Assembly: GCA_963703315.1 (NCBI GenBank)
Contig: OY969811.1
Coordinates: 2,400,001-2,464,000, forward strand
Length of the DNA: 64,000 bases
Direction of reading: 5' to 3'
DNA from: an uncultured cyanobacterium
GTDB lineage: Bacteria > Cyanobacteriota > Cyanobacteriia > Pseudanabaenales > Pseudanabaenaceae
A program made the position numbers and the translations under genes. This document shows, one piece after another, positions 24,994 to 29,301 of this stretch. Numbering within the stretch: position 1 is the first letter of the stretch; each line of letters opens with the position of its first letter. Below the pieces are notes generated by a model that searched no databases, had not been told where the DNA came from, and saw nothing but the letters and a program-made list of their open reading frames with translations.

Positions 24994-26193
24994 ATGAGTG
25001 TTTCTGGAATGCAACGAAAACGGGTCTTATTTATTAGCAATGGTCATGGTGAAGACCTGAATGCTTGCGAAGTGCTGAAGGCTTTGCGGCGCAAATCAGA
25101 AGTGGAGGCGATCGCTTTGCCAATTGTGGGAGAGGGTAAGGCATATCGTCAGGCAGGAGTGGCGATCGCAACGCCGACAAAAGCACTACCATCAGGGGGC
25201 TTTGGCTATCTGAGTTTGCGAAAACAAATCGCGGATTTTCAATCAGGATTAATCAATCTCACTTGGCAACAAATTCGCGCTGCTAGGGAATGTGGCAAAA
25301 CCTGTGATTTTGTGTTTGCGACTGGGGATGTGGTTCCTGCGATTTTTGCTTACCTAACGGGATTGCCCTATAGCTTATTTTTAGTCGCTTCATCGGGTTT
25401 TTATGAAAATCGCTATGTGCCGCGTTGGGAACAATCCTTAATCATGCGATCGCGGCGATGTCGCCAGATTTTTGCAAAGGATGACTATAGCGCTCAACTG
25501 CTGCAACAGGGCGGCTACCAAAATGTGAGTTGTTTGGGCTATCCGATTATGGATGTTCTCGAACCAACGGGCAAAGATTTGTGTTTGACACCTAATGTAC
25601 CGATGATTGCGTTACTGACAGGTAGCCGTTTACCTGAAGCCGCCGAAAATTTAGTTTTGCAATTACACCTATGTGTGGCGATCGCCCAAGAATTTGCCCC
25701 CGATCCTGTACAGTTTCGGGCGGCGCTTGTGCCTAGTCTGATGCCGTTATTGCCTGAACTGGCGATCCAAGCTGGTTGGCAATATGCTGATGGCAAACTG
25801 TATTATGAAAATTTAGGTGTTAGCGTTCTCTGTTTTAGTGATGCCTTTCCTGATATTTTGCAGCAATGCGATCTCGTAATTGGCATGGCAGGTACAGCCG
25901 TTGAGCAAGCGGTGGGACTAGGAAAACCAATTGTGCAAATTATCGGCAATGGTCCCCAATTTTCCTATCGATTTGCGGAAGCTCAACAAAGGTTACTGGG
26001 TTTATCAGTACAAACTATTGGCAAAGAACCTGCGACAACTGAGATTTTGCTAGAAGCAGCCAGTTGTATCAAACGGACTCTAGGCGATCGCGAATATCTC
26101 CAACGCTGTCAACAAAATGGATTAGAACGACTTGGCACAAAGGGCGCTTCTGAAAGGTTAGCCGATGCGATCGCTCAACAGTTAGCCAAATAA
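24994..26193 (+). CDS. Lipid-A-disaccharide synthase-related GT-B protein
   Basis: ISNGHGED, LLTGSRxPEA, GMAGTAVEQAVGLGKP and GPQF motifs. Confidence 0.85.
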   Translation: MSVSGMQRKRVLFISNGHGEDLNACEVLKALRRKSEVEAIALPIVGEGKAYRQAGVAIATPTKALPSGGFGYLSLRKQIADFQSGLINLTWQQIRAARECGKTCDFVFATGDVVPAIFAYLTGLPYSLFLVASSGFYENRYVPRWEQSLIMRSRRCRQIFAKDDYSAQLLQQGGYQNVSCLGYPIMDVLEPTGKDLCLTPNVPMIALLTGSRLPEAAENLVLQLHLCVAIAQEFAPDPVQFRAALVPSLMPLLPELAIQAGWQYADGKLYYENLGVSVLCFSDAFPDILQQCDLVIGMAGTAVEQAVGLGKPIVQIIGNGPQFSYRFAEAQQRLLGLSVQTIGKEPATTEILLEAASCIKRTLGDREYLQRCQQNGLERLGTKGASERLADAIAQQLAK

Positions 26194-26227
26194 TCCCCAC
26201 GTAGATACTGTCTTGAGTACCAAAAAG

Positions 26228-27214
26228 TCAAGAGGGAATTTGAACAAAATTTGGGTCGAAAGAACGCTGAGACTTGAGAACGCCAAAGACCTGTCGTAAC
26301 AGCTTGTGCATGACAGCCCCAATGACAGACATTTTGGACTTACCCTTAGCCGTAAGGCGAGCGCAGAAAGCAGCAATCGGCAAATTATAACGACGGGCAA
26401 CAATCGCAGGCATAAACAAAGCTTTACGCAAACGCGAATTACCAATTTTAGATAAACGTGGCTTACCATGAATCGAAGAACCAGATGAGAACTCACGGGG
26501 AGTTAAACCCGCAAAAGCTGCCAGTTGATCAGCAGTATCAAAGGCAGAAATATCCCGAATTTCCGCCAGTAATATAGTTGCGGTCAGTTCAGCAATACCA
26601 GGAATAGAAGTCAACAAATCCCGTTGAGATTTCAAATGAGGGTGTTGATCAAAGTGCTGACGGATCAATTTTTTGGTCATCTCAATTTGCTCTTTGAGAA
26701 AATCAATGTGAGCATTAATTGCCTCAACCAAAATTGGATCAGCCGTAGCAAGACGATTCTGCTCTTGCTGCTGCATAGCAGTTAAGCTATCTAAACGATG
26801 CACCAATGCTTGTAGTTGCTCAATTTCTAATGCTGGTGGTGTCCAAAGAGCAGGTTTTAAGGCTGCACAAAATCTAGCAATGACTTTAGCATCAGCACGG
26901 TCAGTCTTTGTACGACTTAACTCACTCTTGCCAAAGGCTTTGGGACGGGATGGATTAACAATACTTACTTTGTATCCTGCCTCTACTAAGAATCTAGCTA
27001 ACCCATTGCCGTAAGTGCTGGTAGCTTCCATACAACTATGCAAGTTTGTCACATTTTGAAGGTTTAGCCATTCTTGTAATTCAGCAAATCCTTCAGGATT
27101 GTTGGCAAATACTTTGCTCTTGATTTTGGCGTTGCCTTGGATTAGAGCAACATCAAATTTGGCTTTGCTGATATCTATTCCTAAAACATCATATACTTCA
27201 TTGTTATTGTTCAT
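26228..27214 (-). CDS. IS110 recombinase/transposase (DEDD RuvC-like domain plus Tnp20 domain)
   Basis: GIDISK, MEATS, KTDRADA, SIPGIA, AFAGLTPREFSSG (catalytic Ser loop) and GNSRLRKAL motifs; intact 328 aa. Confidence 0.97.
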   Translation of the reverse strand: MNNNNEVYDVLGIDISKAKFDVALIQGNAKIKSKVFANNPEGFAELQEWLNLQNVTNLHSCMEATSTYGNGLARFLVEAGYKVSIVNPSRPKAFGKSELSRTKTDRADAKVIARFCAALKPALWTPPALEIEQLQALVHRLDSLTAMQQQEQNRLATADPILVEAINAHIDFLKEQIEMTKKLIRQHFDQHPHLKSQRDLLTSIPGIAELTATILLAEIRDISAFDTADQLAAFAGLTPREFSSGSSIHGKPRLSKIGNSRLRKALFMPAIVARRYNLPIAAFCARLTAKGKSKMSVIGAVMHKLLRQVFGVLKSQRSFDPNFVQIPS

Positions 27215-27249
27215 TGGGGGCAGTCCTCTTGCTAGATTTGTCCATCAAG

Positions 27250-27455
27250 CAATCAGTGGTATTGAACTATCCTTGTGAATGCAGGTTTACCCGTTGGGCG
27301 ACCTCTGATACTGTCCAGTCTTTACTTGTTTCCACTGTTTAAGCAGAGACGACTCTATCTACAAAACGGGCTTGGTGTCCCTAGGGGCAGATCGAGTTTA
27401 TCTCTGCTTTTGCTTTTTCGGATTGTAGTAAAGATTTTATCCTTTACTTTTCCTC
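27250..27455 (-). ncRNA. Putative IS110 bridge RNA (5' hairpin, target-binding loop, donor-binding loop)
   Basis: Minus strand: AAGCAGAGA..ACTC-GA-TCTGCCCCT-AGGG..CCC-GTTT-TGTAG-ATA-GAGT..TCTCTGCTT, then CAGTGG..ACTGG-ACAGTATC-AGAGGT..ACCT-GCATT-CACAAG-GATAGT..CCACTG; guides match target and donor; transcript ends approximate. Confidence 0.85.
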
Positions 27456-27464
27456 CTAGATACA

Positions 27465-27535
27465 AGGGGCAGAGCATTCCTATAGAAATCAACAAAATTT
27501 CAGGCGATTTTGATTTGGGAATGCTCTGCCCTAAC
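27465..27535. repeat. GTAG-REP doublet interrupted by the IS110 (its left GT lies at 26201-26202)
   Basis: AGGGGCAGAGCATTCC ... GGAATGCTCTGCCCTAAC inverted repeat. Confidence 0.8.
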
Positions 27536-27571
27536 CTCGCAACGCAGGGACAATTGATCCCTGAAATCATA

Positions 27572-27722
27572 AAGGGTTGAGCATTTGCATTGCCAATTTA
27601 TACCAATTCACAAAAGTGTTGTCACACTTTTGTGAATTGGAGACCAAACGCAGTAAGGGTTTTTAGTTCTGGTATTTAGAGGCGTGAGTATAAAGATATT
27701 GGTGCAAATGCTCAACCCCTAT
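27572..27722. repeat. REP-like inverted repeat with a nested family-E element
   Basis: AGGGTTGAGCATTTGCA ... TGCAAATGCTCAACCCCT flanking TACCAATTCACAAAAGTGTTGTCACACTTTTGTGAATTGG. Confidence 0.7.
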
Positions 27723-27801
27723 GAGTTTGTTGTTATAAATTAATGATGCGAATAATTTATGACAGTAACGACTTTTTGAATTTTTTAATATAATAAAAAT
27801 C

Positions 27802-27987
27802 ATGCAAAATTCAGATTATTTTGAAGGCTTAACTTGGACAGCCGAAGCCAAGATCAAATATAAAAACATTCCCTACTTTGTGCGATCGCAGGCTCGTCAA
27901 CGCATCGAACAGCTAGCAGTAGCGGCGGGTAGTGATACGATTACGGCTGAAATTGTCGAAAAAGCAAGGGTTGAGTTCGGGCAGTGA
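27802..27987 (+). CDS. Stand-alone PCP_red (ChlB C-terminal-like) small protein
   Basis: [28 protein letters not shown]...ITAEIVEKA. Confidence 0.82.
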
Positions 27988-28901
27988 CAGAAACATCAGG
28001 AAAATCAACGGGCGATCGCGGCTATTTGTTAACAGAACAAGCCAATCCCCACAGCCACAATTTAGATCGGCTCAGTCCTCTCGAAATTGTGGAACTGTTT
28101 AACCAAGAGGATGCTAAAGCTGTTGCCGCCGTAGGACAGGAAAAAGAAGCGATCGCTCAAGCGATTAGTGTCATTGCCGACGCGCTATCCAATGGCGGCA
28201 GATTGTTTTACATTGGCGCTGGGACGAGTGGCAGACTGGGCGTGTTAGATGCGGCGGAATGTCCACCGACTTTTTGCAGTGATCCTGAATTAATTCAGGG
28301 CATCTTAGCGGGCGGTATGAATGCAATGGTGCGTAGTTCTGAAGCCCTTGAAGATCGTGAAGATGATGGCGCAAAGGCAATTTCTGACAGAAATATTAAT
28401 GCCCATGATGTCGTGTTTGGGATCACCGCAGGGGGAACCACACCTTACGTGCATGGAGCGCTCAAAGAAGCTAAAAAACGGGGCGCAAAAACAATCTTTT
28501 TCTGTTGTGTGCCACCTGACCAATTTCCGATCCAGTACGATATCGAGATTCGCCCTCTTGTTGGGGCAGAAATTTTGGCGGGATCAACCAGACTCAAGGC
28601 AGGTACGGCGACGAAATTAGTATTAAATACGATTTCCACAGGCGTAATGGTACAACTGGGCAAAGTTTACGGCAATCGCATGATTGATGTCTCGGTGACA
28701 AATAGTAAACTCGAAGACCGTGCAATTCGGATTATTGGCGATCTCACCTCCCTAAGTCGTGACGATGCTGCAAAATTATTAGAGCGATCGGGCAAGCGGG
28801 TAAAGCTCGCATTGTTAATGCATTGGAAAAGTGTTGATGTTGCTACTGCTGAGAAAATTTTACAAGCGAATCATGGACATTTAGGAAAGGCGATCGCTTA
28901 A
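27984..28901 (+). CDS. murQ: N-acetylmuramic acid 6-phosphate etherase
   Basis: [20 protein letters not shown] and [16 protein letters not shown] motifs. Confidence 0.96.
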
Positions 28902-28989
28902 TCCCAAAGTAGATGGACGCAAAGCGTTCATCTACTTATGAGTTTTTGAGCCATTAAGATAAAATATGTTAATTAAAAATGTAGAAACT

Positions 28990-29301
28990 ATGACAGGCGC
29001 AGAACTCCGTCAAGCGATCGCTAATAAATGGGATTATTCCTATGATGTGCAGTTACGCAAAACCCAAGGCAAAATCTTTTTACAAGTAATGTGGCGCTAC
29101 CAAGAGCAACAGTCTTTCTCTATGAGTGAAACAGAATTTATTGAACATCTAAATGCGATCGCCTCCTATTTAAGTGATTGGGGCGTAGTTGAACAAGTTC
29201 AAAAATTTATCGAAATCACCAAAGAGAAACCAAGACTTGGCAAAGCCGTAAGTATTCCTCTACAAATTGGCGAGCGATCGCTAGAGTGGTTAGTCGATTA
29301 A
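28990..29301 (+). CDS. DUF3067-like cyanobacterial protein
   Basis: KWDYSYDVQL...LQVMWRYQEQQSF...PRLGKAVSIPL. Confidence 0.85.
   Translation: MTGAELRQAIANKWDYSYDVQLRKTQGKIFLQVMWRYQEQQSFSMSETEFIEHLNAIASYLSDWGVVEQVQKFIEITKEKPRLGKAVSIPLQIGERSLEWLVD

Follow-up and report, generated by a model that had tools for sequence, protein, structure and literature searches.

Does the non-coding DNA upstream of an IS110-family recombinase gene in a Pseudanabaena-like cyanobacterium encode a bridge RNA, with one loop for the target and another for the ends of the element? The locus lies in a window of 64,000 nucleotides (contig OY969811.1, positions 2,400,001 to 2,464,000; the coordinates below count from the first letter of the window), and an original prediction, made from the letters alone, had read it as a bispecific architecture of the IS621 type. 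We conclude that the stretch is very probably the bridge-RNA gene of an IS110-group (IS621-like) insertion sequence. The predicted architecture is supported by the protein, by the RNA architecture, by four guides, by the handshake positions and by covariation between guides and flanks, and all of the strings and coordinates first given for it read back correctly from the window. Transcription, formation of a ribonucleoprotein and chemistry would follow IS621, by analogy. The element and its immediate surroundings are as follows.

26203..27466, minus strand: IS110-family element, including the CT core at both junctions (placed by flank divergence among seven genomic copies)
26228..27214, minus strand: recombinase gene, 328 aa, with a RuvC-like DEDD domain and a Tnp domain with the catalytic serine (PF01548, PF02371)
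26201..26202, minus strand: right target AC, host DNA (from the flanks of the genomic copies)
27467..27531, minus strand: host hairpin of 65 bp resembling a repetitive extragenic palindrome (REP-like), GGGCAGAGCAT ... ATGCUCUGCCC, in which the last 7 nt of the 3' arm are the left target

The recombinase matches both Pfam domains (PF01548 at 8.5e-27, PF02371 at 1.4e-26) and scores 244.7 bits against the NCBIfam model NF033542, 'IS110 family RNA-guided transposase' (cut-off 140). Its only relatives among solved structures are two bridge recombinases, ISCro4 (9t56, 3.5e-76) and IS621 (8wt6, 7e-73). The alignment with IS621 is gap-free over 310 residues at 44% identity. Residues D14, E63, D105, D108 and S244 align with D11, E60, D102, D105 and S241 of IS621, which are described as essential in that enzyme (PMC11208158; here and below, statements on IS621 follow excerpts of the cited papers), and S244-G245 aligns with S241-G242. 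The IS621 reference is a copy from an E. coli plasmid (L031) that was reached by tblastn; blastn of the element against E. coli genomes gave no match.

The ends of the element are fixed by its copies. Seven copies with ~100% identity are present in the host genome, which is a single contig of 4.57 Mb. Four of these are identical, a fifth carries a single substitution, and in the other two the C-run ahead of the ATG is longer by one C; the ORF of 328 aa is intact in all seven. Divergence of the flanks begins at the same two points in each copy, and because the flanks differ between copies, the seven represent separate insertions. In the window, the left flank ...TCTGCCC is followed by the core CT (27466-27465) and the element start CT-TGTATCTAGG; at the right end, ...ACAGTAT (26211-26205) is followed by the core CT (26204-26203) that closes the element end ACAGTAT-CT, and then by AC. 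The CT core is identical at both junctions, with no longer target duplication, and the arrangement ...CCC-CT-TGTATC ... ACAGTAT-CT-AC is found in 7/7 copies. Counted with a single CT core, the mobile unit is 1,262 bp. The terminal sequences CTTGTATCTAGG and CAAGACAGTATCT, as read directly, are no inverted repeats of each other. The non-coding left end, upstream of the recombinase gene, measures 250 nt, and the right end beyond the gene only 23 bp (26205-26227).

A reconstructed empty site (left flank, one CT and right flank) aligns unbroken to unoccupied paralogous repeats for five of the seven copies, at 75-96% identity, which confirms the element boundaries. For the window copy and the copy at 3.87 Mb, no unoccupied paralogous repeat was found at the thresholds used for this alignment. 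The prediction of an intact element is borne out by the seven copies, the intact 328-aa ORFs and the retained catalytic residues. Apparently, this is an intact and recently active mobile element of the IS110/IS621 type.

The fold of the left end as a single sequence (-68.7 kcal/mol, z = -2.47, with 2 of 200 shuffles folding equally well) recovers the predicted 5' hairpin and two stem-closed internal loops.

27427..27448, minus strand: 5' stem-loop of the bridge RNA, AGTAAAGG/TCTTTACT, as RNA AGUAAAGG ... UCUUUACU (from the fold)
27341..27409, minus strand: target-binding loop module (from the fold, the alignment and the covariance model)
27254..27337, minus strand: donor-binding loop module (from the fold and the covariance model)

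The target-binding module comprises an outer stem (AAGCAGAGA, 27401-27409, with TCTCTGCTT, 27341-27349), an inner stem ACUC/GAGU, an apical GGG/CCC hairpin and a guide-bearing internal loop. The donor-binding module comprises an outer stem CAGUGG/CCACUG (CAGTGG at 27332-27337 and CCACTG at 27254-27259 in the DNA), a stem GACU/AGUU and an apical AGGU..ACCU hairpin.

A scan for relatives in one genome per species gave 23 loci, 11 of which include the gene start and upstream DNA. L014 was dropped because it has the same left end and flank as L013, and L015 because other DNA stands in place of its target loop; the nine left ends that remained form, with the window, an alignment of ten rows (A1). 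Eight helices were written by hand on this alignment. They pair in 89.7% of cells, compared with 30-53% when partners are slid, and 10 of 40 pairs show changes on both sides. Helix 1 (the 5' stem-loop) has compensatory changes at 3/7 pairs, helices 2-4 (the target-binding module) are 82-100% paired with six pairs changed on both sides, and helices 5-8 (the donor-binding module) are 88-100% paired. The covariation score of 0.212 was reached by 0/500 shuffles, a control that is generous because the rows are few and related. Folding and covariation across homologous ends had been proposed as a check of the original prediction, and the stems do show compensatory changes. RNAalifold also paired the first five bases, CTTGT, with ACAAG; we rejected this as an RNA helix. 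It arises because the DNA end was included in the alignment, and it displays the complementarity between the right donor guide and the right donor.

The guides and handshake letters occupy the two internal loops.

27383..27391, minus strand: left target guide (LTG) UCUGCCCCU, DNA TCTGCCCCT, a 9/9 match to the flank TCTGCCC-CT
27359..27362, minus strand: right target guide (RTG) GUAG, complementary to the core and right target CT-AC
27357..27358, minus strand: target-loop handshake guide AU, with the same letters and place as A81/U82 of IS621
27306..27314, minus strand: left donor guide (LDG) ACAGUAUC and the following A, DNA ACAGTATC at 27307-27314, matching the right end ACAGTAT-C
27272..27280, minus strand: right donor guide (RDG) AU-UC-ACAAG, AUUCACAAG, in which seven of nine letters pair with CT-TGTAT of the left end
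27270..27271, minus strand: donor-loop handshake guide GA, the counterpart of G166/U167 in IS621

The target is TCTGCCC-CT-AC and the donor, i.e., the joined ends, is ACAGTAT-CT-TGTAT. All four guide segments occur in the order and length described for IS621. In that element, the target loop holds a 9-nt LTG and a 4-nt RTG followed by the handshake letters A81/U82 (PMC11208160, PMC11208158), the LDG has 8 nt and then A131, whose pairing partner is a flipped-out U in the RDG (PMC11208158), and the nine RNA letters of the RDG pair discontiguously with seven DNA letters ahead of the handshake letters G166/U167 (PMC11208160, PMC11208158).

Because the LTG UCUGCCCCU reads in the same sense as the left target and core, its pairing partner is the bottom strand. 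When the 250 nt of the left end were shuffled by mononucleotides 200,000 times, a 9-mer that matches the flank appeared in 48 cases. On the right side of the target, TGTAG (27359-27363) had been predicted as the guide; the GUAG part holds and the preceding U is not supported, as its position does not track the flank of relatives. A longer right guide, in which the U-run before GUAG would pair with a purine at target position 12 (a purine in 7/7 copies), was also rejected, because the letter before GUAG in relatives does not track position 12 and because the repeat family mostly has a purine there anyway. The left donor guide had been placed correctly at 27307-27314, but its 8 nt are extended by the following A, as in IS621. 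Similarly, ACAAG (27272-27276) is correct as right donor guide but is only part of the discontiguous 9-mer AUUCACAAG, which matches CT-TGTAT at 7/7 paired positions. The bulged third or fourth letter of this guide varies (C, U, G) among relatives.

Under the handshake model of IS621, the AU of the target loop could, once strands are exchanged, pair with the T and A at donor positions 7 and 6; the first of these handshake positions is A in 10/10 rows. The G of the donor loop could pair with target position 7 (C). This letter is G in nine of ten rows; the exception, L018, combines U with an A in place of C at target position 7, and covariation of the handshake letters rests on this single case of U facing A7.

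Guides and flanks change together among the relatives, which come from Pseudanabaena, Chamaesiphon, Phormidium, Leptolyngbya, Kovacikia and Deinococcus. Seven hypervariable columns (77-83), between the invariant blocks CUCG ... CUAGGGACACCAAGCCCG, are exactly the non-core letters of the LTG, and the donor loop and element ends are nearly invariant among the aligned relatives. Compared with its own flank, the LTG matches at 9/9 positions in five of the ten left ends, 8/9 in three, 6/9 in one and 3/9 in one, and six different classes of LTG are represented. Guides of unrelated classes match foreign flanks at 0-5 of the seven non-core positions; within a class, or between nearly identical classes, a guide can match the flank of another member at as many as 7/7. 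Of 19 right-end junctions of relatives, 18 have CT-AC as the right flank; the exception is an Armatimonadota fragment (L030) with CT-CA. Four more distant loci (L031-L034) were taken from plasmids and their guides were read by eye.

IS621, E. coli (L031): LTG ATCGGGCCU on ATCAGGC-CT; RTG GUAG, with the right end outside the stretch read; LDG ACAGUAUC (+A)
Leptolyngbya (L032): LTG 8/9 compared with its own flank; RTG GAAG with CT-TC; LDG ACAGUAUC with ACAGTAT-CT
Kovacikia (L033): LTG 9/9; RTG GUAG with CT-AC; LDG ACAGUAUA, 7/8 compared with ACAGTAT-C
Deinococcus (L034): LTG 7/9; RTG GGAG with CT-CC; LDG ACGGAAUC with the end ACGGAAT-CT

For three of the four guides, then, a change in the DNA partner goes with a change in the guide. 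The RDG and its left-end partner CT-TGTAT are unchanged in every locus read.

Homology to the IS621 bridge RNA extends to its structure. A covariance model (R1) was built from nine cyanobacterial left ends (alignment A2, without IS621; L009 was left out due to a deletion that misaligns its target loop) and run on seven loci. It identified the IS621 bridge RNA in L031 (433-588, model positions 1-160, 36.7 bits, rough E 1.4e-6) and aligned the target- and donor-binding modules with the corresponding IS621 loops. The Leptolyngbya locus scores 62 bits and that of Deinococcus 22 bits (E 0.002). Also identified were a full copy in L011 (185 bits) and a remnant with only the target loop in L025 (77 bits); there was no match in L030. 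Run across the window's own genome, the model found the seven copies only, and no orphan RNA.

Some relatives are incomplete. In L011 (Pseudanabaena minima), the full bridge RNA lies at 16-175 and the gene match starts only at residue 47, ~1.3 kb further on. L025 is a decayed relative in which the target loop (1425-1529) carries the same guide, UCUGCCCCU, and the donor loop is lost. In L015 (Chamaesiphon), ~220 bp of foreign DNA occupies the place of the target loop.

The choice of targets in the host genome provides a further line of evidence. The hairpin repeat family (GGGCAGAGCAT...ATGCTCTGCCC) has 44 members of 65-67 bp and is polar, with CTAC continuing one side and AAAACCTCGCAA the other. 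Six of the seven element copies lie at the 3' foot of a REP-like hairpin. The left flank is TCTGCCC-CT in five copies, TCTACCC-CT in one and TATTCCC-CT in one, and the right flank is CT-AC in all seven. A comparison of the flanks of other genomic copies with the guide had been proposed; 7/7 copies are flanked by ...CC-CT / CT-AC and 5/7 have the perfect left target. There are five unoccupied perfect 11-mers, all at hairpin feet (composition predicts 1.17), and one-letter variants of the guide sequence (TTTGCCC, TATGCCC, TCTACCC, TCAGCCC, TCTGTCC) occur at many hairpins. Perfect sites are occupied in 5/10 cases, compared with 1/31 for one-mismatch sites at hairpins (Fisher p = 0.0018) and 1/59 for one-mismatch sites with CT-AC genome-wide (p = 0.00013). 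Such a bias is what a base-pairing guide with low tolerance of mismatches predicts, and it is in-host support for single-mismatch discrimination by the left target guide. The host genome is a natural experiment in which 10 perfect sites can be compared with 59 one-mismatch sites in hairpin contexts that are nearly identical, and occupancy is almost confined to the perfect sites.

The copy at genome positions 2716312-2717573 is the only one at a one-mismatch site (TCTACCC) and also the only one with a substitution, G74A. We rejected G74A as a guide change that matches TCTACCC, as it hits the conserved linker G just before the LTG (the counterpart of the syn G48 of IS621) and not the guide. The coincidence of the substitution with the one-mismatch site may be just that.

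Other features of the copies and repeats were noted. Two pairs of copies are arranged head-to-head, with left ends facing and 146-149 bp apart (genome 2714877-2717573 and 3075046-3077745). In both pairs the copies occupy the outer feet of two hairpins that stand back to back, one copy per hairpin, and each pair includes one of the two copies that have an additional C ahead of the ATG. The flanks of the two loci differ, which rules out a segmental duplication. The hairpin repeats vary at the fourth to sixth stem letters, and six of them form a tandem array (genome 3985038-3985757) with a 131-bp period, each followed by CTACTGGTCTTT. In the window, a second and longer palindrome, GGGGTTGAGCATTTGCA ... 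TGCAAATGCTCAACCC, lies beside the target hairpin (27574-27719). It has a nested, perfect 17-bp inverted repeat, CCAATTCACAAAAGTGT / ACACTTTTGTGAATTGG (27603-27640), and its arms are similar to the hairpin repeats of the GCAAATGCTC subfamily. The right end of the element is 9 bp past the stop codon of a convergent ORF of 399 aa (24994..26193); thus, the target hairpin sat directly behind the end of this gene, where a terminator is expected.

The non-core LTG letters found in this lineage are TCTGCCC, GCAGCCC, TAAACCC, ATTGCCC, ATTATGC and ACCGCGA. We tentatively suggest that the recombinase lineage (69-97% identical) may have been naturally reprogrammed several times, with only the seven guide letters changing and the donor kept. 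As part of this same tentative proposal, the guide letters may follow whichever palindromic repeat each cyanobacterial host carries, and co-resident elements, because they share the donor sequence, could guide one another, as the RNA of L018 could have guided L010.

The loci L010 (1247-1500) and L018 (1258-1500) come from the same Phormidium lacuna metagenome-assembled genome (MAG), in which there is a single assembled copy of each element type, and have a common left flank, TCTGGCGGTTGAAACCGCGA-CT. The L010 element encodes a protein 92% identical to the window recombinase and that of L018 one 69% identical. The L018 guide matches the shared flank at 9/9 positions and the L010 guide, GAAACCCCU, at 3/9. 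Possible explanations for the site of L010 are cross-guiding by the RNA of the other element, recent arrival, or a chimera in the MAG. If L010 was indeed placed at a site specified by L018, this would be natural cross-guiding by a foreign bridge RNA.

We envisage a cycle of transposition that parallels that of IS621. The element presumably leaves as a circle, and its joined ends would create a sigma-70-type promoter (TTGACT, 18 nt, TATCTT) to drive an RNA of ~200 nt from the left end.

26226..26231, minus strand: putative -35 box TTGACT, overlapping the stop codon (from a consensus scan of the computed junction)

The sequence TATCTT, 18 nt beyond TTGACT, exists only across the joined ends, where TAT and the core CT are joined by the initial T of the left end. 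As a consensus match only, TTGACT-18 nt-TATCTT has 9/12 positions, compared with 7/12 for the best candidate in the integrated state, and the putative -10 has 4/6. The promoter scan found no minus-strand promoter in 26100-27650 in the integrated state. Joining of the ends reconstitutes a sigma-70 promoter in IS621 (PMC11208160), and by analogy TTGACT/TATCTT may function as a promoter here. The first loop of the RNA would read the 11-bp target TCTGCCC-CT-AC, with UCUGCCCCU on the bottom strand and GUAG on the top strand, and the second loop would read the joined ends ACAGTAT-CT-TGTAT via ACAGUAUC and AU..ACAAG. The DEDD/serine recombinase (D14, E63, D105, D108, S244) would act as a tetramer that holds both loops and both DNAs. 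Strand exchange would then occur at the CT core, aided by the handshake dinucleotides (AU, G), with insertion at the 3' foot of a 65-bp REP-like hairpin repeat.

A number of observations weigh against a functioning bridge RNA. Rfam 15 has no matching bridge-RNA family over window positions 25000-29000; its sole match there, to PhrS, was dismissed as chance (15.6 bits versus a cut-off of 37, and inside an ORF). The covariance model is not significant for the Kovacikia locus (10.9 bits, E 0.49), where the guides are read correctly by eye despite the weak score. The stem covariation rests on ten related rows, and the shuffle control overstates its significance. L010 occupies a site with 3/9 matches to the L010 guide, and one copy in the host is at a two-mismatch site (TATTCCC) outside any hairpin. 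In Chamaesiphon, TTGACT lies 8 nt closer to the junction, and the -35 spacing is not conserved. Contigs of an RNA library (run X6) extend over 27163-27470 and show neither strand, ends, nor RNA nature; one X6 contig runs on into a different flank, and run X17 covers only part of the region. Four public runs, available as contigs only, contain no circle joint, excised empty site or molecule ends, and the missing joint says little because contigs drop rare forms.

Guide-flank matches alone cannot tell an RNA guide from a DNA guide, and the contigs of the public runs give no demonstrated transcript. The internal copies of target and ends could be DNA motifs that are read by protein or by DNA-DNA pairing, with the left end serving only as promoter and leader. 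However, the compensatory changes in the stems that frame the loops indicate selection on a folded single strand, and the left end is homologous in sequence and structure to the IS621 RNA, which is needed for recombination in vitro and is base-paired to DNA in cryo-EM structures (PMC11208160, PMC11208158). We thus regard a DNA-motif explanation as very improbable. Less improbable, but still unlikely, is that the bridge-RNA gene is real and the element is now silent, a recently frozen family for which the junction promoter is misread. The lack of a circle joint or excised empty site in the four public runs, the shifted -35 in Chamaesiphon and the 4/6 match of the -10 are consistent with silence; yet contigs would lose rare forms, at most one position differs in any of the seven copies, no ORF or catalytic residue is damaged, and the different flanks represent separate insertions. 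We give almost no credence to an assignment to the seekRNA type (IS1111 group) or to some other subgroup of IS110 whose guide is wired differently. Such elements belong to the same superfamily and have the same Pfam domains, but here the guide RNA is upstream of the recombinase, in the left end, and aligns over its full length with the IS621 bridge RNA, and the best solved relatives of the protein are ISCro4 and IS621. The bridge-RNA gene of an IS621-like element is therefore the reading that we retain.

The mechanism, its covariation logic and thousands of IS110 orthologues have been in print since 2024 (PMC11208160). In the literature searched, we found no paper describing the element or other IS110 elements of Pseudanabaena, and no cyanobacterial element in the literature on bridge RNA and cyanobacteria as judged by titles and the starts of abstracts; the orthologue tables of Durrant et al. 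may list the element or a close relative. The locus adds a well-documented and apparently active bridge-recombinase system from cyanobacteria, a phylum where tools for site-specific insertion are wanted, and its relatives form a compact series, differing only in guide letters, that is useful for questions of natural retargeting. Worth keeping are the host's natural experiment on occupancy, the series of guides retargeted in nature and the copy in L010 that may have been cross-guided.

In the IS1111 group, the guide RNA sits downstream from the gene, unlike the guide RNA here, which is upstream and aligns with that of IS621. These seekRNA elements, the subject of work by Siddiquee et al. in 2024, reportedly are also RNA-guided DEDD/serine recombinases with target and donor guides. 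Closer in protein is ISCro4 / IS622 (PDB 9t56), the best solved relative of the recombinase (3.5e-76, residues 9-321 aligned), which is reported to be an enterobacterial element engineered for use in human cells (bioRxiv 10.1101/2025.05.14.653916). In habit, the element resembles ISPpu10 and ISPpu9 of Pseudomonas putida, multi-copy IS110 elements that insert at repeated extragenic palindromes (excerpts of bioRxiv 10.64898/2026.03.19.712850 and PMC12288879), in that 6/7 copies and all five free perfect sites are at the 3' foot of a hairpin. In the case of ISPpu10, a second determinant of specificity is described, a stem-loop that lies 5' of the paired target (bioRxiv 10.64898/2026.03.19.712850); one copy here, at the two-mismatch site, is outside any hairpin.

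The closest parallel in RNA is IS621 of E. coli, with a bridge RNA of 177 nt (Durrant et al. 2024, PMC11208160; Hiraizumi et al. 2024, PMC11208158). The two share the two-domain recombinase with five catalytic residues and the RNA order of 5' hairpin, target loop and donor loop. Identical letter for letter are the RTG GUAG, the handshake AU, the LDG ACAGUAUC+A, the donor ACAGTAT-CT-TGTAT and the CT core. Also alike are the 9-nt length of the LTG, the discontiguous pairing of nine RDG letters on seven (the RDG of IS621 is AUUUGCAAG) and a target at the foot of a repeated palindrome; a promoter that exists only across the joined ends may be a further parallel. Unlike IS621, the element has a canonical A in the RDG where IS621 has a G.T pair, ~40 nt between the donor loop and the ATG, and a cyanobacterial host whose 65-bp hairpin family is the target; it is known so far as sequence. 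A different natural target had been predicted, and TCTGCCC-CT-AC here indeed replaces the ATCAGGC-CT-AC of IS621. The known mechanism is unchanged by the cyanobacterial element, which is a new example of a known bridge-RNA system and involves no new mechanism.

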